Shown here: positions 28,267 through 64,000 of the stretch, piece by piece | How positions within the stretch are numbered: position 1 is the stretch's first letter | How the letters are laid out: each line of letters opens with the position of its first letter | Assembly: GCA_016223045.1 (NCBI GenBank) | Contig: JACRPT010000146.1 | Coordinates: forward strand, 1,760-65,759 | DNA length: 64,000 bases | Source of the DNA: Candidatus Eiseniibacteriota bacterium | GTDB taxonomy: Bacteria > Eisenbacteria > RBG-16-71-46 | Direction of reading: 5' to 3' | The notes under the pieces: model-generated | The model's input: only the letters and a program-made list of their open reading frames with translations | Databases searched by the model: none | What the model was told of the DNA's origin: nothing | Translations under genes and position numbers: made by a program

Positions 28267-28270
<4 letters not shown>
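26516..28270 (+). CDS. secreted DUF885-family protein
   Basis: Signal peptide. GWADYCE and HT/Q-rich motifs resemble DUF885 (a putative metallopeptidase-like family). 584 aa. Confidence 0.65.
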
Positions 28271-33348
<5,078 letters not shown>

Positions 33349-33510
33349 AACTGCGTGTATTCTCGCGGTCTGTGGGGTTTTCGCCCCGCGCATCTCGTCA
33401 AAATCCTCGAATCGCCACCCCGCGACACACCGCGCCACCGGGCCGGCGCTCGTCTGTCAATCCTCTGCCACACAACGGCTTGAAGACATGATCGCCGCGC
33501 GCATGCGGAC

Positions 33511-33526
33511 CGGCACGGTCCTCGCC
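33511..33526 (+). promoter_or_regulatory. weak candidate sigma-54 promoter cGGCAC-N5-TcGC upstream of the small secreted ORF
   Basis: cGGCACggtccTcGCc has correct GG-N10-GC spacing, about 50 bp upstream of 33578. Degenerate. Confidence 0.25.
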
Positions 33527-33577
33527 CTGTGAGGTTCACGTCCCCCTGGACCGTCGAACCCTCACCCGGAGACTCCC

Positions 33578-33883
33578 ATGCGCCTCGCCCGACTCCTCGC
33601 ACTCACCCTCACCCTGCTCTGCCTCTGCGTCGGCGCCGCCAGCGCTCAAATGGGCGTTCCGCCGACCACGGGGGGGACCAGCCTCCAGCAGACCGCGCCC
33701 GAACCGACCACCTCGCCCGCCGGCTACGGCGACTGGCTCACCAGCCTCACGGCGCGACTTGGCGACCGCTTCGCCCTGGCCGCGCAGAGCTGGCTGATGC
33801 CGGTGCGCCGGCCGGTGGCGGCGGTGGCGCCCGATCGGGCCCCCGCACCGCGCGTGGCCGTGACCCCGCGCCGGAAGCCGTAG
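33578..33883 (+). CDS. small secreted protein (hypothetical)
   Basis: Signal-peptide-like N-terminus (MRLARLLALTLTLLCLCVGAASAQ). GGAG lies 8 nt upstream. The body is compositionally biased (Pro/Ala-rich), so this call is uncertain. Confidence 0.4.
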   Translation: MRLARLLALTLTLLCLCVGAASAQMGVPPTTGGTSLQQTAPEPTTSPAGYGDWLTSLTARLGDRFALAAQSWLMPVRRPVAAVAPDRAPAPRVAVTPRRKP

Positions 33884-33964
33884 ATGCCGACAGCGCTGCC
33901 CGTGTGCACTTGGGCAGCGCCCGCTCGCATGGAGTACCACACGCTCAAGGAGGAGGTTGTCACG

Positions 33965-34699
33965 ATGACCCGCTTCATCTTGGCACTCGTAATCGGACTG
34001 GCCCTCGCGGGGGGCACCGCAAGCGCAGCCCCCGAGAAGATCGACGCGGGCAACCCGACGTACTTCAGTGGGAACCAGCGGAACCTCCCGGTCAGCATGA
34101 CGTTGACCCCGCAGGCAGCCGTACAGTGGGCCTACACGATGCCCGCCGTACAGGCTGCGGTGCAGGAGATGCAGCGCCGGGGCTACATCGCACACCCGGA
34201 GTACGACAACGCCGTGAACGTGAACGATCCGCCTTCGACCTTCGTAACCCTGTCATTCGAAAAGCCCGGCCTCACAACGCCCTCGAACATCTCCGGTGCA
34301 CCCGCCATCATCATCGGTACGGTACTGCAACCGGATGGCACCGCGTTCACGAATGCGACGGGCGGGCTCGCCTTCGTCAACTGGGACACCGGTCTGTGCC
34401 AGAGTGCCGAAGAGTACCCGGAGTTCCAGTACAGCGACCCGAGCTTCGACGTGATGGACTACTACATCACGAGTACCGGCATCCGCCGCCCCCTCCCGCA
34501 ACCCGTGATCTTGGGCGCAACGGATTCGCCGGGCGACAAGAAGTTCCGCAAGTTCATGGGTTGTACGACCATTGTCGCCGCGGGCGCGCTCGTCAAGGCC
34601 GCGCTGACCCCACCACCAATCCCCCAGAAGGTCGTGATTGACGCGGCGCTCACGACGATCTTCGGCGCAATTGCATGCGCCAATGGCATCTTCAACTGA
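33965..34699 (+). CDS. secreted protein, paralogue A (Gly/Ala-rich hydrophobic C-terminus)
   Basis: Strong RBS AAGGAGGAGG-N8-ATG. Signal peptide MTRFILALVIGLALAGGTASA. Paralogous to 35995..36828 (shared MPxxQ..Q.RGY and FEKPG blocks). Lower GC than the flanks. Confidence 0.65.
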   Translation: MTRFILALVIGLALAGGTASAAPEKIDAGNPTYFSGNQRNLPVSMTLTPQAAVQWAYTMPAVQAAVQEMQRRGYIAHPEYDNAVNVNDPPSTFVTLSFEKPGLTTPSNISGAPAIIIGTVLQPDGTAFTNATGGLAFVNWDTGLCQSAEEYPEFQYSDPSFDVMDYYITSTGIRRPLPQPVILGATDSPGDKKFRKFMGCTTIVAAGALVKAALTPPPIPQKVVIDAALTTIFGAIACANGIFN

Positions 34700-34700
34700 C

Positions 34701-34928
34701 ATGCGCACGCTGAACGAAATCGTCTTCGGAGCCGTCAGCGCAATGCTCTGGTGGTTCCTGACCCACATCCCGCTCGTGGGCGTCGCTATCTTCGTCTCGC
34801 AGTGCATCTCGGTGGGCGTTGCCACGAAGTACCCACAGCACCCTGAGGTGTGGTGGGCCACCTTCGCTCGCGCCATCGCAGCAGGTGGGTTCTTCGCCGC
34901 AATCGGCATGCTCATGCTCCATCGGTAA
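34701..34928 (+). CDS. small 2-TM membrane protein (partner of paralogue A)
   Basis: 75 aa with two hydrophobic helices. It starts 2 nt after the upstream stop. Confidence 0.55.
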   Translation: MRTLNEIVFGAVSAMLWWFLTHIPLVGVAIFVSQCISVGVATKYPQHPEVWWATFARAIAAGGFFAAIGMLMLHR

Positions 34929-34949
34929 GGGAGACTGGAGGGTCCAAGC

Positions 34950-35462
34950 ATGCCGGGCAATGATCCTCGTGGGGGCGGCGTGACGCCCCCCGAGCAGCTC
35001 ATCCGGATGCACCGCCGCAGCCTCGTCCACGTGCTGGTGCTCCACGGCACGACGGCGGGGCGCGACCAGGTCGCGCGCGTCTTCCACCGCGAGAGCCCGG
35101 TGCGCAGCGGCCCGTTCGTGAAGCTCGACGCCGCGCGTGACGCAGACGCGCTGCACGCGGCCCTGGAGGCGTGCGTGGCGCGCGACGAGGAGGTCGGCGT
35201 GGTGCGCGAGTCGCACCGCGGCACGCTCTACGTGGACTTCGTCGGGCGGCTCCCGCTCGAGACCCAGCGCCTGCTGCTCGAGTTCTCGAAGCGCTCGACC
35301 TCCGACCTGCCGGGCGCGCGCGCCGCGGCGTGGGGCGGGCGAATCGTCGCTGGCAGCCCCAACGACCTGGCTCCCGCGGTCGCGCAGGGCCGCTTCATCG
35401 CCGAGCTCCACGACACGCTCAACAAGATCCTGGTGGACCTCGGGCAGGAAGGCGCGCCGTGA
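34950..35462 (+). CDS. degenerate sigma-54-activator-like AAA+ domain protein (pseudo-EBP)
   Basis: Aligns to the central domain of NtrC-family activators (VLVLHGTTAGRDQVARVFH vs a GESGTGKE Walker A; GTLYVDFVGRLPLETQRLLLEF vs [11 protein letters not shown]...Q..LLR; RIVAGSPNDL...GRFIAELHDTLN vs RIIAAT...G.FREDL..RLN). It lacks the Walker A Lys, the Walker B DE and the GAFTGA loop. Confidence 0.5.
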   Translation: MPGNDPRGGGVTPPEQLIRMHRRSLVHVLVLHGTTAGRDQVARVFHRESPVRSGPFVKLDAARDADALHAALEACVARDEEVGVVRESHRGTLYVDFVGRLPLETQRLLLEFSKRSTSDLPGARAAAWGGRIVAGSPNDLAPAVAQGRFIAELHDTLNKILVDLGQEGAP

Positions 35463-35845
35463 CGCGGGCGACGCGCGGCCAAGTCCTGCTGCTCACCGCG
35501 CGCCCCGCGGCGCATGGGAAGCTGGTTCGCGCGCTGCGCGGGCTGGGCGCACGCGTGAGCGTCCCGCACGCCGCGCCGCAGACGCTGCGCCTGATCGCCC
35601 GCCGGCCCACCCTGGTCCTCGTGGACCTTGCCAACGGCGCGGGCCTCACGCCAGAGATCGTGGACCTGCTCAACCGCCGCCGCGATCCAATCCTGGTCCT
35701 CGCGCTGCACGACGGCAGTTTCGGGCTGCGCGAGCGCGCGGTCGCCGGGCTGAGCGTCGCCGGCTTCTGCCCCGCGCACGACAGCCAGCCGATCGTGAAC
35801 GTGGTGGCCGGCCTGCGCGCCGGGGGCGCCGTCGCCGTCCACTGA
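35459..35845 (+). CDS. receiver (REC)-like domain protein lacking the N-terminal acidic pair (pseudo-receiver)
   Basis: GTG overlaps the upstream stop. The alternating beta/alpha pattern VLLLT ... TLVLVDL ... ILVLALHDG resembles CheY-like receivers, but the N-terminal DD pair is absent. Confidence 0.45.
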   Translation: MTRATRGQVLLLTARPAAHGKLVRALRGLGARVSVPHAAPQTLRLIARRPTLVLVDLANGAGLTPEIVDLLNRRRDPILVLALHDGSFGLRERAVAGLSVAGFCPAHDSQPIVNVVAGLRAGGAVAVH

Positions 35846-35994
35846 GCCGGCTTGACTTGGGTTGTGCGGTTAGACCAGCGAGGAGGCACCGAGCATGCGG
35901 GTGGTCGCGATTGCGCTGTTGTCGCTGGCGACAGGTGGTGAACATGCGGGGGTTGGATGAAGCGGCTCATTGAGCATCCAGAGGAGGATGTCAC

Positions 35995-36828
35995 ATGAGG
36001 AAGTATGGGCGCGTTTCGATTCTTCTGATCGCTGTGCAATTGCTGGCCGGGGTCGTGGCTTGGGCACAAGAACCAGAACCTGTATTGTGGGTACCTCCCA
36101 GTCAGCGACAGCCGACGTACTGGACGAGATGGAACGGCGGGGCGCGCAACCTGCCCTATGGCTCGTCGGTAAGCTCCTCACTGGTGCTGCAGACCGCTCT
36201 TAGCATGCCGTGGATACAGGACGGGATTGGTCGAATGCAGTCCCGTGGATACTTGCGGCGGACCGATATGGACGGGGCCTCGAGTCGAGATGGGTACGCC
36301 TGCGCGGTAGTCGCCTTTGAGAAGCCGGGCGTCGCGCCCACGGCAGAGCAGCCGATCATCTTTGTGAGTACGGCGCCGATTCCCGCAATCGACCAGATGA
36401 CTGGTGACACGATCGCCGTGGTTGCGACCCAGGTGTTCGCCGGGATGGTTGCGGATTCATCGGGTACGGTCGTGACGCGCGAGACTGCCTCCGACCCATC
36501 GGAGGCGCTGACGGTGACTCCTGCGTTGAACACGACTGCGACCGTCATGCCTCTCATGAACTCGGAAGATCTCGAGTACCGCTACGCCGGCTACAGTCTC
36601 GCCAGCAATGGGGCGTCGGACCCCTATACTGCCGTCTGGAATGCCATCCCGCCCGTGTGGCGGAACTTTGGCATATATGTGGGCGTCGGCGCTGCGGCAG
36701 GATATGCCGGGGGCGGAGGATGGCTCGGCGCGGCCGTTTGGGGCGCTGCGTCGGGAGTCCTCTACTGGTTTGGGCCTCCATGCAGTTGCCCGCCGACCCG
36801 CTCGGATCCCAACGGAACCCGGAGGTGA
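35995..36828 (+). CDS. secreted protein, paralogue B (Gly-zipper C-terminus)
   Basis: RBS AGAGGAGGATGTCAC-ATG, similar to the paralogue A leader. Signal peptide. The C-terminus is GIYVGVGAAAGYAGGGGWLGAAVWGAASGVLYWF (GxxxG-zipper-like). GC about 50-55%. Confidence 0.65.
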   Translation: MRKYGRVSILLIAVQLLAGVVAWAQEPEPVLWVPPSQRQPTYWTRWNGGARNLPYGSSVSSSLVLQTALSMPWIQDGIGRMQSRGYLRRTDMDGASSRDGYACAVVAFEKPGVAPTAEQPIIFVSTAPIPAIDQMTGDTIAVVATQVFAGMVADSSGTVVTRETASDPSEALTVTPALNTTATVMPLMNSEDLEYRYAGYSLASNGASDPYTAVWNAIPPVWRNFGIYVGVGAAAGYAGGGGWLGAAVWGAASGVLYWFGPPCSCPPTRSDPNGTRR

Positions 36829-36831
36829 GCC

Positions 36832-37137
36832 ATGAATCACACTATGGACAAGCTCGCGGCGGATGCGGAAGCGTCCACCTTGACTGATGCGGCGAAGGCC
36901 AACAGGCACTTTGCGGCTGCTGCGGCTGTGGTCTCCGGGCTTGCGTGGGGGCTGCTGGCCAGGAACGCATACGTCTTCTTGTTGACCGTCGCGCTCTGCC
37001 TGAGCCACAGCCTCTACTCCGACATGAGAAGGGATTCGAAGCTCAAGCGCGCCGGCTACTCCGTATTCGTGGGGGCGTGGGTGTATCTCGTGACGTGCCT
37101 GATGGAGCACGGCGGACTGTTGAGGGCAGTCCGCTGA
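36832..37137 (+). CDS. small 2-TM membrane protein (partner of paralogue B)
   Basis: 101 aa with two hydrophobic helices. It starts 4 nt after the paralogue B stop. Confidence 0.55.
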   Translation: MNHTMDKLAADAEASTLTDAAKANRHFAAAAAVVSGLAWGLLARNAYVFLLTVALCLSHSLYSDMRRDSKLKRAGYSVFVGAWVYLVTCLMEHGGLLRAVR

Positions 37138-37140
37138 GTG

Positions 37141-38225
37141 CGAATCGCGTTCCAAACTTCGGGCCTTGGCTCGACTGTGTTGCGCTTGGTGGTCGGTTCG
37201 TCGTGGCCTGCAAGGATGGGCCGAGTGGCTACTACACGCTTGACGCGTGCAATCCGAACGACTACAGCACGATGGCCTTTGGTGGCACGTCGGCCGCAGC
37301 GCCATTCGTAAGTGGCGTCGCGGCGCTCCTGTTGAAGTTGAATCCCAACCTGATCGGCGAGGACATCCAGGAGCTGATCAACCGCACGGCGATCAATCTT
37401 TCCTACGGCGGCGGGTTTACGGACCAATACGGGCACGGCTACGTCCGGGCAGATCTTGCCAAGGCCAAGCTCGACGGACGCGAGCTGTTCCATTTCGCGG
37501 TCGGCGACGTGCCGTGGGCTCTTGGACCTTTGACGGATGTCGAACAGGCGGACGTCTCGATCTTCTTCCTCAACGTCCAGCAGTGGTTCCCCTCTCCAAG
37601 CAGCTATCCGTGCCGCCGACATCGGCTGGCGGCAACGGTGCAATGGCCGCACTCCTTTCCGGACCTGCCGACGGTGTGGACGCGGTCGAGCGGGAGCCTG
37701 GGGTGGCGGTCGATCGGACCGTCGCCCGACTACTTCGACTACGAGAAGGACGTCTATGAGGGCGGAGTAGTGGGCGGGACGGTGAGCCAGACTGGCGCGA
37801 CCTTCGAGACCTACGTCTACGAGGTCTACTACAACGGCGCATACCACTGGTGGCCGACGGATCCGGGCCATGCCCGCTTGATGATCACCGCCCTCGGTGG
37901 CTTGGCGAACACGGGAGTGCGGGATCCTGCTGTGGCCAGGGTCACCGAGGTCCGCTCGTTTCCGAATCCGGCCAGGAGCGGCGTGCAGTTCGAAGTCAGC
38001 GTTCCGGAGCGGGGTCTGGTGCGGGCCGTAGTGCTCGACGCGCAGGGCAGGCAGGTCGCGCTGGTCGCTAGCGAGATGATGGAGGCCGGCCGGAGGAGAT
38101 TCGCCTGGGGCGGGCGGATGGCGGACGGGCAGTGGGCCCCGGCGGGCGTATACTTCTGCAAGGTGCGCTCGAGCGGCGGACAGGCGGTCCGAAGGTTCGT
38201 GCTGCTGGGCGCAAACAGGGAGTAG
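37141..38225 (+). pseudogene. 5'-truncated subtilisin-like (S8) serine peptidase fragment with a T9SS C-terminal sorting domain
   Basis: Contains only the Ser-active-site block (YSTMAFGGTSAAAPFVSGVAALL). The Asp and His blocks are absent upstream, where another gene lies. The C-terminal 80 aa look like a Por/T9SS CTD (SFPNPARSG..F.V...G.V...V.D..GR.V ... GVYFCKV). Confidence 0.5.
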
Positions 38226-38326
38226 CGCGCATCGGGGTGGATGCGGGCTCTCAATGTCACCGGGAACCCGGCTGCTTGCTGGGCAGTGAGTAGGGTGCTA
38301 CGAGGCGTCGCGCGGAGGAGGTTGAG

Positions 38327-39310
38327 ATGTCGAGGAGACGAAGCTACATCGCATGGCCCGCGCTCGCGATGCCGCTGTTCCTTGGCTCATGCGAGAAGAG
38401 CCCGGTTGCCCCCGTGAAGCCCGATGGAGCGCGTCGCGACACCCTGCCACGGTTTGCGCAGGTAGACTATCCGCTCAGTTGGTCCACGGACGGGAATCTC
38501 GCGGCGTTCCGCCGCTGCGTGCCCAGCAGCTACGGCGGGCCGGGCCTCTACGTCATCCCGCGCTTCGGTGGCAAACCCCTCTACGTCCTTCCGGCCAACA
38601 TCTTCTGGCCGAAGGAGGTTCGGTTCTCTCCCGATGGCACCCGGGTTGCCGGGGTCTGGAACTTCTCGCTCTTCATCGCGGATCTCCGCACCGGCCGCGT
38701 GGACTGGCCCTACTACACGGCCAACGGAGTAGGGGGGGTGGATTGGTCGCCTGACGGGAATACGCTGCTGCTCAGCAGGCGCTTCTACCTGCCTGAGCAG
38801 CCCGAAGACTCGGCCGGTGTCCATTTGTTCGATGTTCGTACCGGGCGGGACGAGGTGTTCCTCTCCCGGGGCCGTCATGTCTATGGAGGAGACCCGCGGT
38901 GGTCGCCGGATGGGGATTCGTTCGCAGTGGTCGAGTACACCGATGGAGCGGCTCGCGTGGCAATCTATGGGCTGCGTGACAGTTCGCTCAAGATCGTCTG
39001 GCCTGGCACCCGGGCGGATGATTTCGAGAACCTGCAATGGGTGCGACCCGCCCTCTTCGGGCATCTCAAGCTGGCGGTGCGGAAGTACGTGGGGGAACGC
39101 CAGGGGTCATACTTGATGGACCCGGACGGTTCCCGCCTGGAGCGGCTGCCCTACAGTATCTTCTTTTCCGCATTGTCCCCGACGCGTCCGGAGTTGCTCA
39201 CGCTCGGCTGGTCAGGAGCGGATTCCTTGGGGGTCGTCGGGGTAGACTGGGTCTCCGAAGATCGTGTCCTGTGGGGGCGCCGGCTCACGGCGTGGCGACC
39301 GCCCCAGTGA
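38327..39310 (+). CDS. TolB-like beta-propeller lipoprotein
   Basis: Lipobox LFLGSC. Repeated SPDG/WSPDG propeller-blade motifs (FSPDGTRVA, WSPDGNTLLL, WSPDGDSFAV). Confidence 0.7.
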   Translation: MSRRRSYIAWPALAMPLFLGSCEKSPVAPVKPDGARRDTLPRFAQVDYPLSWSTDGNLAAFRRCVPSSYGGPGLYVIPRFGGKPLYVLPANIFWPKEVRFSPDGTRVAGVWNFSLFIADLRTGRVDWPYYTANGVGGVDWSPDGNTLLLSRRFYLPEQPEDSAGVHLFDVRTGRDEVFLSRGRHVYGGDPRWSPDGDSFAVVEYTDGAARVAIYGLRDSSLKIVWPGTRADDFENLQWVRPALFGHLKLAVRKYVGERQGSYLMDPDGSRLERLPYSIFFSALSPTRPELLTLGWSGADSLGVVGVDWVSEDRVLWGRRLTAWRPPQ

Positions 39311-39312
39311 CG

Positions 39313-39515
39313 CGCCTCCCGAGCAGCTCATCCGGATGCCCTGCCGCAGCCTCGTCCACGTCCTGGTCCTCGCGCTCCACGACGGCAGCCTCGGATTGCG
39401 CGAGCGTGCGGCCGCCGGGCTGAGCGTCGCCGGCTTCTGCCCCGCGCACGACAGCCAGCCGATCGTGAATGTAGTGGCCGGCATGCGCGCCGGGGACGCT
39501 GTCTCCCTCCACTGA
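39313..39515 (+). repeat. internally deleted second copy of the pseudo-EBP/REC-like gene pair (5' 60 bp + 3' 155 bp)
   Basis: The sequence matches 34977..35037 joined to 35691..35845 at about 90% identity. The junction lies in the similar ctggtcctcgcgctSCACGACGGC stretches. It encodes a chimeric 83-aa ORF. Confidence 0.65.
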
Positions 39516-39656
39516 AGCGCCCGGCCGCGCCGGGCTCCCTGCCGCGTCGCCGCCGCAGGTTGACGCCCGCGCGCGACGGAGGCTAATGTCCGGGCTCCTT
39601 CGCAACCGATACCAGGGAAGGTTCGGCCTGCCCCCTGCGGGGCTTCTGGAGGTTCC

Positions 39657-40628
39657 ATGCAGTTGCGCGCCCTGCGCCGCTGGGGAGCGTTGCTCCTCGT
39701 GACCCTGGTGGCGTGCCCGGCCATGACGGCCGGCGCCACCGCCCGCTCCACCCGAGATCGCGCCCCGACCCGCGTGCAGGCCACCCGGACCGGCACGGGC
39801 GCCGCGGTGGCGAAGCGTGCCCGTCCCCGGCGCGCCCGCCGCGCGCCCGCCCGCCGTGCGCGCCGGCGCGGCCCCAGGGGCGTGGTCTACGCCCGCAACG
39901 CCATCGTCGTGGACCCGCTGACCGAGCGGGTGCTGTTCGAGAAGCAGTCCGGCGAGACCGTGCCGATCGCGAGCCTCACCAAGCTCATGACCGCGCTGGT
40001 GTTCCTCGAGCAGAAACCCGACCTCAGGCGCGTGGCCGAGGTCACGCGGGCCGAGATCTCGGGCGGGGGCCACACCCAGCTCCGCAACCACGAGCAGGTC
40101 TCGCTCTACGACCTGCTCCACATGGGCCTGATGAACTCGGACAACGTGGCCACCCGCGTGCTGGCCCGCGAATCCGGGCTCACGGCCGACGCCTTCGTGG
40201 CGCGCATGAACGCGAGGGCCGCCGAGCTGGGGCTCGCGCACACCCACTACGTCGAGTTCACCGGTCTCGACGAGCGCAACGTCTCGACCGCCGCCGACAT
40301 CGCGAAGCTGCTCCGCGTCGCCGCGGACCACTACCTGATCCGCGAGATCACCACCACGCCGACCTACGTGTTCACCAGCGAGCGCCCGCCGCGCACGCAC
40401 CAGATCGTGAACTCGAACCGCCTGGTGCGCGGCAGCCGCTACGAGGTCAACTGCGGGAAGACCGGCTTCATCAGCGAGGCCGGTTACTGCGTGGCCACCT
40501 GGGTGCGCGACCGCGGGCGCGACCTGATCACCGTGGTGCTCGGCGCCCCCACCAACGCCACGCGCTTCGCCGACGTCGTCCGCCTGGTCCAGCGCACCGA
40601 GACGCTGAGCGTCAGCGAAGCCCGGTAG
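39657..40628 (+). CDS. D-alanyl-D-alanine carboxypeptidase (S11, PBP5/6-like)
   Basis: SLTKLMT (SxxK), SDN and KTG motifs. Signal peptide. Confidence 0.8.
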   Translation: MQLRALRRWGALLLVTLVACPAMTAGATARSTRDRAPTRVQATRTGTGAAVAKRARPRRARRAPARRARRRGPRGVVYARNAIVVDPLTERVLFEKQSGETVPIASLTKLMTALVFLEQKPDLRRVAEVTRAEISGGGHTQLRNHEQVSLYDLLHMGLMNSDNVATRVLARESGLTADAFVARMNARAAELGLAHTHYVEFTGLDERNVSTAADIAKLLRVAADHYLIREITTTPTYVFTSERPPRTHQIVNSNRLVRGSRYEVNCGKTGFISEAGYCVATWVRDRGRDLITVVLGAPTNATRFADVVRLVQRTETLSVSEAR

Positions 40629-40640
40629 CGCGGCCGCACC

Positions 40641-41456
40641 ATGACGACCCGCGACCGCGTCCGCGCGCTGCTGGCGGGACTCGTCGCCGGGATCGCGGGC
40701 GGGCTGTTCGGCGTCGGCGGCGGGCTGGTCCTTATCCCGCTGCTCACCGGCGGGCTCGGCCTCACGCAGCACCGCGCGCACGGCACCTCGCTCGCCGCGA
40801 TCGGGGCCACCGCGGCGGCTTCGCTGTTCGTCTACGGCGCGCACGCCAACGTGGCCTGGGGCACGGCGGCGCTGGTCGGGATCGCGAGCGTGCTGACGGC
40901 GCGCTACGGCGCGCGCTGGGCGGCGCGCACCTCGGCGCGCCGGCTGACGCACGCCTTCGCGGTGTTCCTGGTGCTGGTTGCGCTGCGGCTGCTGTGGAAG
41001 GCCCCGGCGCACGCGGGCTCGCCCTTCCCGCCCGGCGCGGCCGCGATCGGCTTCGACCTCGCCCTGGGGGCCGCGGCGGGTTTCCTGGCCGGCTTCATGG
41101 GCGTGGGCGGCGGGATTATCGCCGTGCCCGCCTTCAGCCTCGTCCTCGGGATGTCTCAGCAGGCCGCCCAGGGCACCTCGCTGGCGGTAATCCTGGTGAC
41201 CGCGCCGGCCGGAGCCATCGAGCACGCGCGCCACGGGAACGTGGCGGGCAAGCTGGTGCCGGCCCTGGCGCTGGGCGCGGCGCTGGGGGGCCCGCTGGCC
41301 TCCTGGCTGGCGCTGCGGCTGCCGCACGAGGCGCTGGCCAGGGCCTTCGGGGTGTTCCTGCTGGCCAACGCCCTGCACATGTGGGCCCGGTCGGGCCGGA
41401 TGACCCAGGAGAGTGGGGCAGTGGTCCCGAGGGAGACCTCTGGCGACTCGCGCTAA
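40641..41456 (+). CDS. TauE/SafE (DUF81) family anion exporter
   Basis: Two repeated four-helix halves with GxGGG motifs typical of the TauE/SafE family. Confidence 0.75.
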   Translation: MTTRDRVRALLAGLVAGIAGGLFGVGGGLVLIPLLTGGLGLTQHRAHGTSLAAIGATAAASLFVYGAHANVAWGTAALVGIASVLTARYGARWAARTSARRLTHAFAVFLVLVALRLLWKAPAHAGSPFPPGAAAIGFDLALGAAAGFLAGFMGVGGGIIAVPAFSLVLGMSQQAAQGTSLAVILVTAPAGAIEHARHGNVAGKLVPALALGAALGGPLASWLALRLPHEALARAFGVFLLANALHMWARSGRMTQESGAVVPRETSGDSR

Positions 41457-41692
41457 GCGCCTACGAAAAGGCGAAGTACCGCAGCTTCGAGCTTGAAGCC
41501 GCGCGGCGCTTTTCATAGAATTGTCGTGGTCACGAATTAAGGGTTGCCTGCGAGCAACGCTATCGGGGGCAGGCCCGGCCTCTCAATACGGGCAGCAGCG
41601 CCACGCGAACGCGCCCGAAGCCCAGGCCCCGCAGCGGGCGGTCGTCTGTCGTCATCGCATCAGGGCAAGGCATCCACAAGGAGACCCCCACC

Positions 41693-42394
41693 ATGAGAAA
41701 GACCGCTACCGCGCTGTTCGCTCTCGCCCTCGTCGCTTCGATGGCCACGGCTGCGCTCGCCGCGAACGCCGTGCGCATCAGCCAGGTGTACGGCGGCGGC
41801 GGCAACACGGGCGCGACGTACAACAACGACTACGTCGAGCTGTTCAACAACTCCGGCTCCGCGGTCAGCATCGGCGGCTGGTCGCTGCAGTACGGCTCGG
41901 CCACCGGAACCGTGAATCTCGGGGCGTGCACGAACTGCCTCACGGTCATCCCGTCGGGCGCCTCGATCCCGCCGTGCGGCTACTACCTCATCCAGCTCGC
42001 GGCCGGCACGATCGCGGGTCCGCCGCTCCCGGTGACCCCGGATCTCATCATCCCGCAGGCGACGGCCAACAACCTGAGCGGCACCAGCGGCAAGATCGGG
42101 CTGAAGTCTGACGCCATCACCACGCCGTGCGTGCCGCAGACGGCGTTCGTGGACCTGGTCGGCTACGGCACCGCGAATTGCAAGGAAGGCGCGACCGCTG
42201 CCCCGACGCTGAGCAACACCGAGATGGCGGTCCGCAATGGCGGCGGCACGGTTGACACCGACGTCAACGGTTCCGACTTCACGAAGGTCGCGGGCGCGGT
42301 CCCGCACAACTCGGCCTCGCCGGCGAACGCGGGCTGCCTCGTGACGCCGACGATCCCGCAGAGCTGGGGCAAGCTGAAGGTCCTCTATCGCTGA
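41693..42394 (+). CDS. secreted lamin-tail-domain (LTD) protein
   Basis: Signal peptide, then VRISQVYGGGGN...YNNDYVELFN, which matches the LTD signature. Confidence 0.65.
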   Translation: MRKTATALFALALVASMATAALAANAVRISQVYGGGGNTGATYNNDYVELFNNSGSAVSIGGWSLQYGSATGTVNLGACTNCLTVIPSGASIPPCGYYLIQLAAGTIAGPPLPVTPDLIIPQATANNLSGTSGKIGLKSDAITTPCVPQTAFVDLVGYGTANCKEGATAAPTLSNTEMAVRNGGGTVDTDVNGSDFTKVAGAVPHNSASPANAGCLVTPTIPQSWGKLKVLYR

Positions 42395-61619: not shown

Positions 61620-64000
61620 TCACTTCAGCCGGACCACGCGCCGCATCTGTCTGACTCCCGCGGCGTCGAACCTCAGGAAGTAGAGTCCGGATGCAGCCGG
61701 CGCGCCCGACGCGCCTGCGCCGCGCCATTCGAACGCGTGCTCACCCGGCTCCAGCCGTCCCCGGTAGAGCGTGACGATGCGGCGGCCGGCGAGGTCCCAG
61801 ACCGAGATCTCCACGCTCTGCCGGCTGGCCACCGAGACCGAGAATGAAGTCGCGCCACGGCCCGGGTTGGGCGCGGGCGGGCGGCTGAAGCCGGTCGTGA
61901 GCGCGCCCCGCGCGGGCGGCTCGACCGGCGGCACCTCCACCACCCGGCCCTGAGTCTCCTCCAGCACCCAGACGTCCCCGAGCCGACCCGCGTCGGACAA
62001 GCCGCCGAACGCGATCATCCGCTGGCCCGCCGGCGCCGCGCTGTGAAGCGTGCGCGCGGGCGGCGGCCCGCTGGTCGGGCTGAGGTCGGTCCAGATGGGC
62101 GCCCCGGCCAGCCCGTTCGCGCCGGTGAGAGTCTGCACCGTGTCGCTGCGCGTGCCCCCGATCGCGCCCCCGAAGACGGTCATGCTGTTCTTCACGGGGT
62201 CGTAGACCGCGCGATGGAGAGTCCACGGTGAAGGCGGCGTCCCGCCGGGCGAGAGTTGCGTCCAGGCGGGAGACCCCACGCCGTTGGCGTCGCCCAGCAC
62301 CCAGACTTCGAGGTTCGACGCACCGCAGGGGACCAGGCCACCAAGAACCGTCATCCGGTTGCTGACCGCATCGTAGGTCGCCTGGTGGCCCGTCCGCGCG
62401 CTCGGCGGACCGCCGGTGGGCGCGAGTTGCGTCCAGGCGGGAGACCCCACGCCGCTGGCGTCGGAGAGCGCCCACACGTCGTTCTGCTCGCCCCCGCAGC
62501 CGCCGGCGCTGGCGTCGCCGCCGAACACCACCATGCGGTCGGTCGCCGCGTCGTAGACCGCGCTGTGCCCGGTGCGCGCCGCGGGCGGCCCGCCCGTGGG
62601 GGCGAGCGAGATCCAGGCCGGCGCGCCGCCCAGTCCGTTGGCGTTCGAGAGCACCCAGACGTCGTTGAACATGCCCGGCGTCGGCCCGGTCGCGTCGTCG
62701 CCGCCGAAGACGATCATCCGGTTGCCGCCCGGGTCGTAGACGGCGCTGTGGTTGGCGCGCGCGGGCGGGGGCCCGCCAGCCGGTGTGAGCTGAATCCAGC
62801 CCGGCGTACCCGCGGCGCCGTCGGCGCCGGTCAGCACCCAGACGTCGTTGAGCGGCCCGCCGTCACCGCGGCCCCCGAACACCGTCATGCGGTTGTTCCC
62901 GGCGTCGTGGACCGCGCTGTGGCCGTCGCGCGGAAGCGGGGGTGTTCCGAGCGGCAGGAGCTGCACCCAGGTCTGCCCCACGGTCACCAGCACGACATCG
63001 GTCCCCGAGATGCGGGGCTCGAGCGAGAGCCCGCCCCCCAGGCTGAGGCCGGTGATGCCCGCGAAGCCGCCGCTACGCGAGGCGAAGGTCATCACCTGGA
63101 AGCTCTGGCCGGGGGTCGGCACGAAGCTGTTGATGAGCGAGATGTTGAGCGTGCCGTCCAGCGCGATCGCTCCGCTCACCGCCAGCCGGTCGTAGCCGGT
63201 TCCGGCCGTGGCGCCGCCGAGCTCGATGTTGATCGTGCTGCTGGAGCCGAGCGGCGCCGCGCCGATGATGGAGAGGATGCCGGGCGAAGTCCCGGGATTG
63301 ATGCTGCCGGAGCTGCTGAACGAGGTGGACGCGACATTGAGCGTGCCTGCTCCGCTCAGGGTGCCGCCGACCGCGTTGTCGAACGTTCCCGACGTGACCG
63401 TGCAGGTGCGGCCCGCCCCGATCTCGAGCGTGCCGGTGTTGGTGAAGCTCGGGCTGGTGCCGCTCTGGGTGATCGTCAGGTTGCCGCCGCCCAGCGTGAG
63501 CGTCCCGCTGTTGCTGTGCGCCGCCGCGGCCTTGCTCAGCGTCAGCCCCTGGTCCACCGTCACCGTGCCCTGGTTGTCGAGCCGCGCCCCCAGCGTGCGC
63601 CCGCCCCCGGCCCCGGCCAGCACCGCGATGGTGCGGCCGGCCGGGTTCAGCAGCGTCCCGGCGCTGAGGTTGAGCGTGGCCCCGTAGCCCGCGTTCGAGC
63701 TGGTCAGCTCGATCGTCCCGTTGTTGGTGAACCCGCTCGCCACCGTCACGACCACCCCCCCCGAGGTGCCGTCCCCCTCCAGGTGCAGCGTCGAGCCGGG
63801 GGCGCTGGTGAACGCGCCGCTCAGGCTGCTCGCCCCCCGCAGGTCCAGCGTGCCCTCGTTCACCAGCGCCGCGCCCACCGCGCAGGAGCGCAGCAGCTGC
63901 GTCACCGCGCTCGAGTTGGTGATGGTGCCGGGACCGTTGAGCGTGGAGCTGCTGGCCGAGAGCGCGAAGTCGGCGGTCGCGAAGCTCAGCGCGAAGCCCG
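61620..64000 (-). CDS. large secreted Kelch-repeat / beta-helix protein with T9SS C-terminal sorting domain (N-terminus beyond window)
   Basis: C-terminal ...SGLYFLRFDAAGVRQMRRVVRLK matches the T9SS CTD pattern. There are multiple Kelch-like blades (AVYD..G.R..VFGG), and the N-proximal part is made of Gly/Thr/Ser-rich beta-helix-like repeats. The ORF remains open to the window end. Confidence 0.65.
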   Translation of the reverse strand, partial: GFALSFATADFALSASSSTLNGPGTITNSSAVTQLLRSCAVGAALVNEGTLDLRGASSLSGAFTSAPGSTLHLEGDGTSGGVVVTVASGFTNNGTIELTSSNAGYGATLNLSAGTLLNPAGRTIAVLAGAGGGRTLGARLDNQGTVTVDQGLTLSKAAAAHSNSGTLTLGGGNLTITQSGTSPSFTNTGTLEIGAGRTCTVTSGTFDNAVGGTLSGAGTLNVASTSFSSSGSINPGTSPGILSIIGAAPLGSSSTINIELGGATAGTGYDRLAVSGAIALDGTLNISLINSFVPTPGQSFQVMTFASRSGGFAGITGLSLGGGLSLEPRISGTDVVLVTVGQTWVQLLPLGTPPLPRDGHSAVHDAGNNRMTVFGGRGDGGPLNDVWVLTGADGAAGTPGWIQLTPAGGPPPARANHSAVYDPGGNRMIVFGGDDATGPTPGMFNDVWVLSNANGLGGAPAWISLAPTGGPPAARTGHSAVYDAATDRMVVFGGDASAGGCGGEQNDVWALSDASGVGSPAWTQLAPTGGPPSARTGHQATYDAVSNRMTVLGGLVPCGASNLEVWVLGDANGVGSPAWTQLSPGGTPPSPWTLHRAVYDPVKNSMTVFGGAIGGTRSDTVQTLTGANGLAGAPIWTDLSPTSGPPPARTLHSAAPAGQRMIAFGGLSDAGRLGDVWVLEETQGRVVEVPPVEPPARGALTTGFSRPPAPNPGRGATSFSVSVASRQSVEISVWDLAGRRIVTLYRGRLEPGEHAFEWRGAGASGAPAASGLYFLRFDAAGVRQMRRVVRLK

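Follow-up and report, generated by a model that had tools for sequence, protein, structure and literature searches.

The 64,000-nucleotide stretch of Candidatus Eiseniibacteriota DNA analyzed here (from contig JACRPT010000146.1 of assembly GCA_016223045.1, hereafter the window) carries a pair of overlapping genes, R1 and R2, and, downstream of them, a second and internally deleted copy of the same pair, with a cassette of foreign base composition in between. All features described below lie on the plus strand unless stated otherwise. R1 (34950–35462, 170 aa) encodes a stand-alone homologue of the sigma-54-interaction (AAA+) domain PF00158, and R2 (35459–35845, 128 aa), the GTG start codon of which overlaps the R1 stop codon, encodes a pseudo-receiver with a CheY-like fold. 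The deleted copy, referred to here as the remnant (39313–39515), joins R1 codons about 12–31 in frame to the final 51 codons of R2, and the cassette (35846–39306) is 3,461 bp long. As an earlier note on this DNA had described, the cassette contains the paralogue B gene pair, a truncated fragment of an S8 peptidase gene with a type IX secretion system (T9SS) domain, and a TolB-like lipoprotein gene. The same note took the arrangement to be a sign of an actively rearranging region. Our analysis points instead to an old scar of duplication and insertion.

The Repeat and the 659-bp Deletion

Both a repeat search and a blastn comparison bear out the equation, made in the earlier note, of 39313–39515 with two joined segments of 34977–35845: the remnant is a direct, in-frame fusion of 34984–35042 (92% identity) and 35693–35845 (87–89%). 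The repeat search paired 35667–35845 with 39337–39515 (87%) and 34984–35042 with 39313–39371 (92%), and a blastn comparison of 33.3–39.7 kb with the whole window, the self-alignment that the note had suggested as a check, recovered significant similarity between 35674–35845 and 39344–39515 (89.0%, E = 3.4e-58) and between 34984–35056 and 39313–39386 (87.8%, E = 4.2e-19), with no nucleotide-level repeats in 33.3–39.7 kb beyond these two segment pairs. In the intact copy, the N segment (34984–35042) thus comprises R1 codons about 12–31, and the C segment (35693–35845) the last 51 codons of R2 together with its stop codon. Homology between the copies starts at about 34977–34984 (R1 codon 10–12) and ends at the R2 stop codon, and on neither side is the sequence flanking the intact copy shared with that flanking the remnant. 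The longest identical run is 57 nt (35743–35799), and overall the two copies differ at 9% of nucleotides, with a synonymous divergence (dS) of 0.25.

The offsets between the copies are 4,329 bases for the N segment and 3,670 bases for the C segment, and since these differ by 659, the downstream copy corresponds to the upstream copy minus 659 bp. The deletion junction lies in the motif CTGGTSCTC, which encodes ...LVL... strands and is present at all three relevant sites (35034–35042, 35693–35701, and 39363–39371), in agreement with the earlier placement of the breakpoint in a short internal repeat. The origin of this motif is clearer in the closest relative, a groundwater bacterium from the Hainich metagenome, represented by two contigs (L009/L012 and L013) of one ENA assembly (Hain_H43_..., ERZ1292640), in which the intact copy (L009) has a perfect 12-nt direct repeat, GTGCTGGTCCTC, at positions 1401 and 2060. 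This repeat sits exactly at both breakpoints, and its spacing of 659 equals the size of the deletion; in the window's own intact copy, it has decayed to CTGGTSCTC with one mismatch. Loss of one repeat together with the interval between the repeats is the classic mark of slipped mispairing or short-homology recombination. The fusion of R1 to R2 is in frame because 659 is 2 modulo 3 and R2 lies in the +2 frame relative to R1, which makes the open frame a one-in-three coincidence, for which a selective explanation is unnecessary.

The Ancestral Arrangement and the Age of the Scar

Contigs carrying homologues of R1 and R2 show the compact order activator–p100–R1–R2–DacC–TauE, where p100 denotes a small protein of about 100 aa. 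R2 lies 130–480 bp upstream of the gene for DacC, a D-Ala-D-Ala carboxypeptidase, in L010, L014, L015, L017, L019, L022, and L025, and in L007, R1 is followed by DacC. As this compact order is found in at least seven more distant relatives, the single-copy state is ancestral and the duplication derived, and these outgroups, together with the match between the deletion size and the repeat spacing, support the sequence of duplication followed by recombinational deletion that the earlier note had proposed. Positions 1987–3990 of L010 align without a break, from the 3′ end of R2 through the spacer, DacC, and TauE, with window positions 39364–41384, from which it follows that the remnant occupies the ancestral right junction. 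The intact pair lies in the ancestral left-hand context, and everything between the copies is derived. The ancestral right flank (39516–41456) consists of the spacer, the carboxypeptidase gene (39657–40628), and the TauE gene (40641–41456; Pfam assignments), an order repeated in L007, L013, and L025. We note that positions 39540–39656 of this spacer are nearly invariant in comparison to L013 (about 3 differences in about 115 nt), exceeding the conservation of the neighboring coding sequence, and that this leader of the carboxypeptidase gene contains TTGACG...TAATGT; it may be a promoter or 5′ untranslated region element.

The Hainich contigs bracket the cassette from both sides. L009 aligns with window positions 32573–33879 and 34949–35936 at 91.5–93% nucleotide identity, covering the 3′ end of the activator gene, the p100 equivalent (p103), R1, and R2, and follows the window for 91 bp beyond the R2 stop codon, i.e., across the left edge of the cassette, before diverging at 35936. 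L013 aligns with 38513–41732 at 93.0% identity with 9 gaps, and covers the 3′ part of the TolB-like gene, the fused remnant with an identical junction sequence, DacC, and TauE. The orthologues in the window and in the Hainich relative differ by dS values of 0.10–0.22. Since L013 has the identical remnant and flanks, the duplication, the insertion, and the 659-bp deletion would all predate the split of the two lineages, the insertion for at least the TolB-like part and the left edge of the cassette. The scar thus appears to be old and stably inherited, and the proposal of an actively rearranging region finds no support: the remnant, its junction, and its flanks are alike across about 7% nucleotide divergence.

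Probable Gene Conversion between the Intact Copy and the Remnant

To follow the two copies after the duplication, the full copy and the remnant from the window and from the Hainich relative were compared at 203 sites. The Hainich copies differ from each other at 4 of the 203 sites (98.0% identity) and the window copies at 18 (91.1%), with 16–22 differences (89–92% identity) in the between-lineage comparisons; 8 sites group the copies by genome and 1 groups them by position. Without exchange, the Hainich copies would be expected to differ at no fewer than about 14–18 sites (Poisson P ≤ 0.0015). As they are 98% alike even though the duplication predates the split, gene conversion is the simplest reading. 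The direction in the Hainich lineage was probably from the intact copy to the remnant, since both Hainich copies are nearer to the full copy of the window than to its remnant. Since this homogenization, 4 changes have arisen between the Hainich remnant and its full copy, 3 of them non-synonymous and 1 synonymous (ratio of non-synonymous to synonymous rates, omega, about 1), which fits unconstrained sequence, as expected. The changes private to the window remnant comprise 4 non-synonymous and 5 synonymous substitutions (P = 0.06), 6 of the 9 being GC-to-AT, and are too few to indicate constraint or its absence.

Content and Composition of the Cassette

The cassette is compositionally foreign. 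Its GC content is 0.643, with a GC content at third codon positions (GC3) of 0.71–0.83, compared to 0.749 and 0.92–0.94 for R1–R2, 0.73–0.75 and 0.95–0.97 for the flanks, and 0.72 and 0.90 for the remnant, such that the repeated pieces are native in composition overall (0.72–0.75). Signs of a mobile element were not found: searches of 33.5–39.6 kb against Pfam, NCBIfam, and PADLOC, together with the repeat search, gave no marks of a transposon, insertion sequence, or integron-type cassette and no transposase or integrase match, with PADLOC returning generic AAA and subtilase matches alone. Searches of the cassette and of B277, a protein encoded in it, gave no match to plasmids at the DNA level or to phages at the protein level, and the repeat search found no inverted repeats at the boundaries; the A module (see below) has the sole boundary feature, a repeat of the 6 nt ATGCCG. 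A sigma-70 scan of 33.3–39.7 kb gave no promoter-like site, the same interval has one terminator-like site (under the shuffle expectation), and the whole window has 19 matches to the sigma-54 promoter consensus against 19.9 expected, i.e., no signal.

At the left edge of the cassette lies the stump of an interrupted gene, an open reading frame (ORF) beginning MRVVAIALLSLA... (35896–35961), which is interrupted by the B module after about 13 codons, at the point where homology to L009 ends (35936); in L009 itself, the ORF runs on for at least 39 codons. Beyond the B module, a 5′-truncated S8 serine peptidase gene (37146–38225; Pfam S8, TIGR04183) retains the Ser motif, a FlgD-Ig domain, and a T9SS type A C-terminal sorting domain (TIGR04183 score 27.3 bits, cut-off 23), and has lost the Asp/His part, covering profile positions 204–288 of 288 alone in Pfam S8. 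Its alignment with the homologue P0092 starts at residue 118 of the latter. The best homologues are 37–40% identical and are themselves partial, and no close homologue that supplies the missing 5′ end was found among them. The minus strand encodes another C-terminal domain of the FlgD-Ig/T9SS type at 61626–61871, at the end of a 761-aa ORF (61620–63905), with 37% identity to the domain of the truncated gene; such cargo tails recur in the genome.

The last cassette gene (38327–39310) encodes a TolB-like putative lipoprotein with a PD40 beta-propeller (Pfam PD40, E = 8e-8; weak match to TIGR02800) and a lipobox-like LGSC. Its orthologue in L013 is 93% identical at the protein level with an omega of 0.15, indicating purifying selection, and it is therefore a maintained gene and not debris. 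The last codons and stop of this gene (39264–39312) run into the duplicated R1 5′ segment. As the stop codon lies within R1-derived sequence, the junction has shaped the C-terminus of the protein, and this arrangement is kept in L013.

Lineage-Specific Insertion of the A and B Modules

Two further insertions are specific to the lineage of the window. The A module (33884–34949) is a clean 1,066-bp insert between the stop codon of the small-protein gene p101 and the start of R1, with ATGCCG on both sides. It encodes A271 (33884/33965–34699) and a small membrane protein, A75 (34701–34928), supplies a Shine-Dalgarno-like GGAGG to R1, and has a GC content of 0.631 and a GC3 of 0.82. L009 lacks this module and has 2 nt between p103 and R1. 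The B module (35937–37140) is an insertion or replacement of about 1.2 kb encoding B277 (35995–36828) and the membrane protein B101 (36832–37137). Its left edge is the point at which L009 diverges, its right edge adjoins the start of S8 homology at 37146, and it truncated the S8 peptidase gene. A271 and B277 share 31% identity across 106 aa (E = 7e-10), which makes the modules paralogous in kind; there is no nucleotide similarity between the two modules, and no significant similarity between A75 and B101.

The first-gene family of these modules (69 cluster representatives) comprises secreted proteins of about 270–300 aa with an RGYxRRxDxD...FEKPG domain, modeled by AlphaFold2 (AF2) with pLDDT values of 85–95, and a hydrophobic C-terminal tail, rich in Gly, that ends in W..PPDT; the second gene encodes a small multi-pass membrane protein. 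No match was found in Pfam, NCBIfam, PADLOC, or PDB folds, and three members have an additional C-terminal FlgD-Ig/T9SS-like extension. In a scan with a six-sequence B277 subset, genome matches came from Eisenbacteria metagenome-assembled genomes (MAGs) only, at three loci (L026 4119–5322, L027 3624–3950, and L028 6001–6243); the setting differs from that in the window, the family gene lying after prmC and again being followed by a small membrane ORF. The recent change in this region is therefore insertion of the A and B modules, not turnover of the unit bracketed by the repeat.

R1, R2, and the Kinase/Sigma-54 Activator Operon

R1 and R2 belong to an operon whose first gene encodes a giant activator of about 1,692 aa (28270–33348), with the Pfam architecture Ser/Thr kinase–AAA_16–TPR–GAF–sigma-54 AAA+–HTH_8. 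Both architecture and position are repeated in L005, L007, L009, and L010. Between the activator gene and R1 lies p101 (33578–33883), a gene called in the Logan contig L002 for a small signal-peptide protein, which has equivalents of 99–103 aa in the same four contigs and no match in Pfam or NCBIfam. In comparison to L009 (1006–1317), p101 is fast-evolving (omega 0.64, 76% protein identity); for reference, omega is 0.11 for the C-terminus of the adjacent activator and 0.49 for R2, which is relatively relaxed. More than 10 metagenomic contigs have the order activator, signal-peptide protein of about 100 aa, R1, and R2, and the carboxypeptidase and TauE genes usually follow downstream.

The match of R1 to PF00158 is clear (E = 2.2e-15; 57.2 bits against a cut-off of 20.2), and its family comprises 17 proteins of about 170–183 aa. 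In the family alignment, HG/GGxxAxRxQ (GG/HGxxAxR) stands where Walker A (GxxGxGK) is expected and LDxV replaces LDEI; this alignment shows neither Walker A nor the Walker B Glu, no GAFTGA-type loop, and no DNA-binding domain, the protein stopping after the AAA core with no HTH_8 match. R2 has no Pfam match and falls below the Response_reg threshold. Its AF2 model, built on an alignment of four sequences (the R2 homologues found being four in number), is of moderate confidence (pLDDT 72, pTM 0.70), and Foldseek places it among receiver domains at TM scores of 0.6–0.67, including GacS D1, FrzS, KdpE, NtrC1, and the CikA pseudo-receiver. When the alignment is read against the model, the beta3 Asp (D56) is the sole conserved residue of the phosphorylation pocket, beta1 being LLLTARP, without the acidic pair, and beta5 GFCPAHD, without the Lys, and it is for this reason that we call R2 a pseudo-receiver. 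We infer that R1 and R2 probably modulate the giant activator, R1 as a dead AAA+ subunit and R2 as an adaptor.

Proposed History and Alternative Explanations

The comparisons above show the structure of the locus and its presence in two lineages, the single copy as the ancestral state, the spacing of the repeats, and the base composition; the order of events set out here, the mechanism of the original duplication and insertion, and the direction of conversion are inferred. An ancestral operon of activator, p100, R1, and R2 would have been followed directly by DacC and TauE. In the common ancestor of the MAG and the Hainich relative, a 5′-truncated copy of R1–R2, beginning near R1 codon 10 and ending at the R2 stop codon, would have been duplicated in direct orientation, with about 2–3 kb of low-GC foreign DNA, carrying an S8/T9SS peptidase gene and the TolB-like lipoprotein gene, placed between the copies. 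The route may have been a single complex event, a tandem duplication with insertion at its junction, or, with minority probability, Campbell-type integration. The left copy would have kept the 5′ context of the operon and remained functional, and the right copy would have kept the ancestral junction with DacC and lost 659 bp through recombination or slippage between the 12-nt direct repeats, fusing the 5′ part of R1 to the 3′ part of R2. The scar would then have been passed on vertically, with the remnant exchanging sequence with the intact copy by gene conversion, most clearly in the Hainich lineage. After the split, the MAG lineage would have gained two diverged copies of the two-gene module, which encodes a secreted protein (about 275 aa) and a small membrane protein, A landing exactly between p101 and R1, and B within the first gene of the cassette, with loss of the 5′ portion of the S8 gene. 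We assign a probability of roughly 0.78 to this history, i.e., to an old duplication-plus-insertion scar as opposed to an active cassette.

Several points weigh against it and should be kept in mind. L009 and L013 are separate low-coverage (4–5×) contigs of one metagenome, such that their origin from one genome is not established, and the DNA between them (equivalent to window positions 35937–38512) is missing from the comparison. The date of the insertion is bracketed widely, between the relatives at about 50% R2 protein identity and the split of the window and Hainich lineages, and duplication and capture of foreign DNA may have been one event or several. The stump ORF at 35896 may, but need not, be the 5′ end that the S8 gene has lost. 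Finally, the window's own copies are, at 91% identity, close to the between-lineage divergence, and the evidence for conversion in the window lineage is weak. The preferred history predicts a single Hainich locus with p103–R1–R2, an intact gene beginning MRVVAIALLSLAAGLAEARAQGVNLAWDAC..., the TolB-like gene, the remnant, and DacC, and without the A and B modules; the intact gene is possibly a full-length S8 peptidase gene.

The reading closest to that of the earlier note is a recent duplication and deletion at a locus that is still rearranging, with the 3.5-kb unit currently gained or lost between the repeats. RecA could in principle excise the unit through the 57-nt exact run shared by the copies, a compact R1–R2–DacC locus would again result from recombination in the C segment, and the A and B modules are lineage-specific. 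We nevertheless consider it very unlikely, as the copies have diverged by 9% in nucleotides, and the identical junction and flanks in a relative at dS 0.1–0.2 largely refute it. In addition, the Logan contigs from two sequencing runs all have one structure, and no excision product, i.e., a hybrid R2, was found among the R2 homologues. Of the note's overall interpretation, duplication and deletion are therefore supported and active rearrangement is not, even if the A and B insertions and the homogenization in the Hainich lineage point in its direction. It is more improbable still that the second copy was made by a chimeric or mis-joined contig, a possibility that we regard as negligible. The source is a short-read MAG, and Logan unitigs break inside the repeat at one register (35772/39442), as would follow from a misassembly; such breaks are, however, also the expected product of two genuine copies coexisting in one sample. 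Contigs assembled from the two runs are 100% identical to the window across the A insert and the R2-to-cassette and TolB-to-remnant junctions, such that the repeat is not a contig artefact, and an independent assembly from another site has the identical remnant junction.

A different origin of the second copy, arrival with foreign DNA, we judge to be unlikely. In this scenario, Campbell-type single-crossover integration of a circle carrying the cassette and an already deleted R1′::R2′ would yield the exact layout in one step, through one crossover in the C segment, and the divergence between the copies would equal the distance between donor and recipient, the donor being a related strain. The remnant does keep ancestral states lost from the full copies, such as the Leu at ...HDGSLG... 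shared with P0020 and P0021, and its lineage-specific changes are not clearly pseudogene-like (P = 0.06 against neutrality for the 4 non-synonymous and 5 synonymous changes given above). Against this, nothing resembling an integrase, a transposase, a plasmid, or a phage was found in the cassette or close to it, the GC content of the repeated pieces is native and that of the cassette is not, and the donor must already have carried the deletion; the right flank of the remnant, which is the ancestral R2–DacC junction, is explained equally well by both models. It is also possible to imagine that the remnant has been kept by selection, either because it encodes a mini-protein of 59 aa, corresponding to the final two helices and strands of the pseudo-receiver, or because it carries regulatory signals for DacC. 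The 59-codon ORF from ATG 39336 is open and has the same stop in the window and in L013, the downstream spacer is almost invariant, and the remnant has persisted for a dS of at least 0.1. Conversion from the intact copy would, however, hold the frame open without selection, the Hainich remnant has an omega of about 1 since homogenization, and the fragment would, according to the model, be without beta1–beta3 of the receiver fold. Furthermore, no gene is called at 39313–39515 in the source collection, an exact-protein look-up of the 83-aa remnant ORF gave no gene product on record, a 1-nt indel upstream breaks the longer GTG ORF between the lineages, and no promoter- or terminator-like site was found, all of which make this explanation highly doubtful.

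A more speculative suggestion concerns the A and B modules, which might represent small two-gene cassettes of a new, insertable type in Eisenbacteria, either toxin/immunity-like or for surface proteins. We think that this is quite unlikely to be correct. If it were, both modules would have inserted independently beside R1–R2, in the orientation of the operon and after the split from the Hainich lineage, and this would mean that read-through from the kinase/sigma-54 activator operon was either targeted or selected for; in a weaker variant, the remnant may be kept as a conversion partner or as a mini-protein modulating R2.

In terms of its broader meaning, the old-scar reading serves as a calibration, in that a repeat resembling a live hotspot of rearrangement is recognized as an inherited scar once relatives are compared. 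It also provides, for Candidatus Eisenbacteria, an uncultivated phylum, a worked example in which foreign DNA has been captured between native segments present in duplicate, with deletion endpoints on a 12-nt direct repeat, a remnant later homogenized, and lineage-specific insertions in an operon. The conserved and uncharacterized operon of kinase/enhancer-binding protein, p100, dead AAA, and pseudo-receiver, and the Eisenbacteria-restricted module of secreted and membrane proteins, may merit study in their own right; further work on this operon, on the twice-inserted module, and on the almost unchanging DacC leader is likelier to be rewarding than work on the repeat.

Comparison with Known Systems

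The components of the operon resemble known regulators with clear differences. R1 is homologous to the sigma-54 interaction domain of NtrC-family enhancer-binding proteins, yet lacks the Walker, GAFTGA-type, and DNA-binding elements listed above, and the AAA-like gene precedes the receiver-like gene here, which is the reverse of the NtrC order. Similarly, the R2 model superposes on receiver domains such as FrzS and the CikA pseudo-receiver (PsR), and R2 is unlike response-regulator receivers in being without the beta1 acidic pair and the beta5 Lys. As a foreign islet flanked by direct repeats, of the kind produced by Campbell-type or tandem-duplication insertion, the locus is typical in having DNA of GC 0.64 within native repeats (0.75), and atypical in that no integrase, tRNA att-like site, transposase, or terminal inverted repeats were found in it, and in that its repeats are 0.2–0.86 kb of coding sequence and not a short att core.

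Concerted evolution of a functional gene and a silent copy is known from tufA/tufB and from the pilE/pilS silent cassettes of Neisseria. The present case is similar, in that a 5′-truncated, promoterless copy has been homogenized with an expressed gene a few kb away, in one lineage to 98% identity compared to about 92% for orthologues. It differs in having a single remnant and no cassette array, with no evidence of programmed recombination, in involving cytoplasmic regulators without obvious benefit from variation, and in its apparent direction, from the intact copy to the remnant. The closest parallel for the deletion itself is the short-direct-repeat class, attributed to slipped mispairing or RecA-independent illegitimate recombination, with one repeat and 659 bp gone and endpoints on a perfect 12-nt repeat; unlike in a fresh event of this class, the repeat in the window's intact copy has decayed, the event being ancient and its mechanism read from the scar alone. 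The feature as a whole is a genome scar of an ordinary and well-understood kind, found in an unusual organism.

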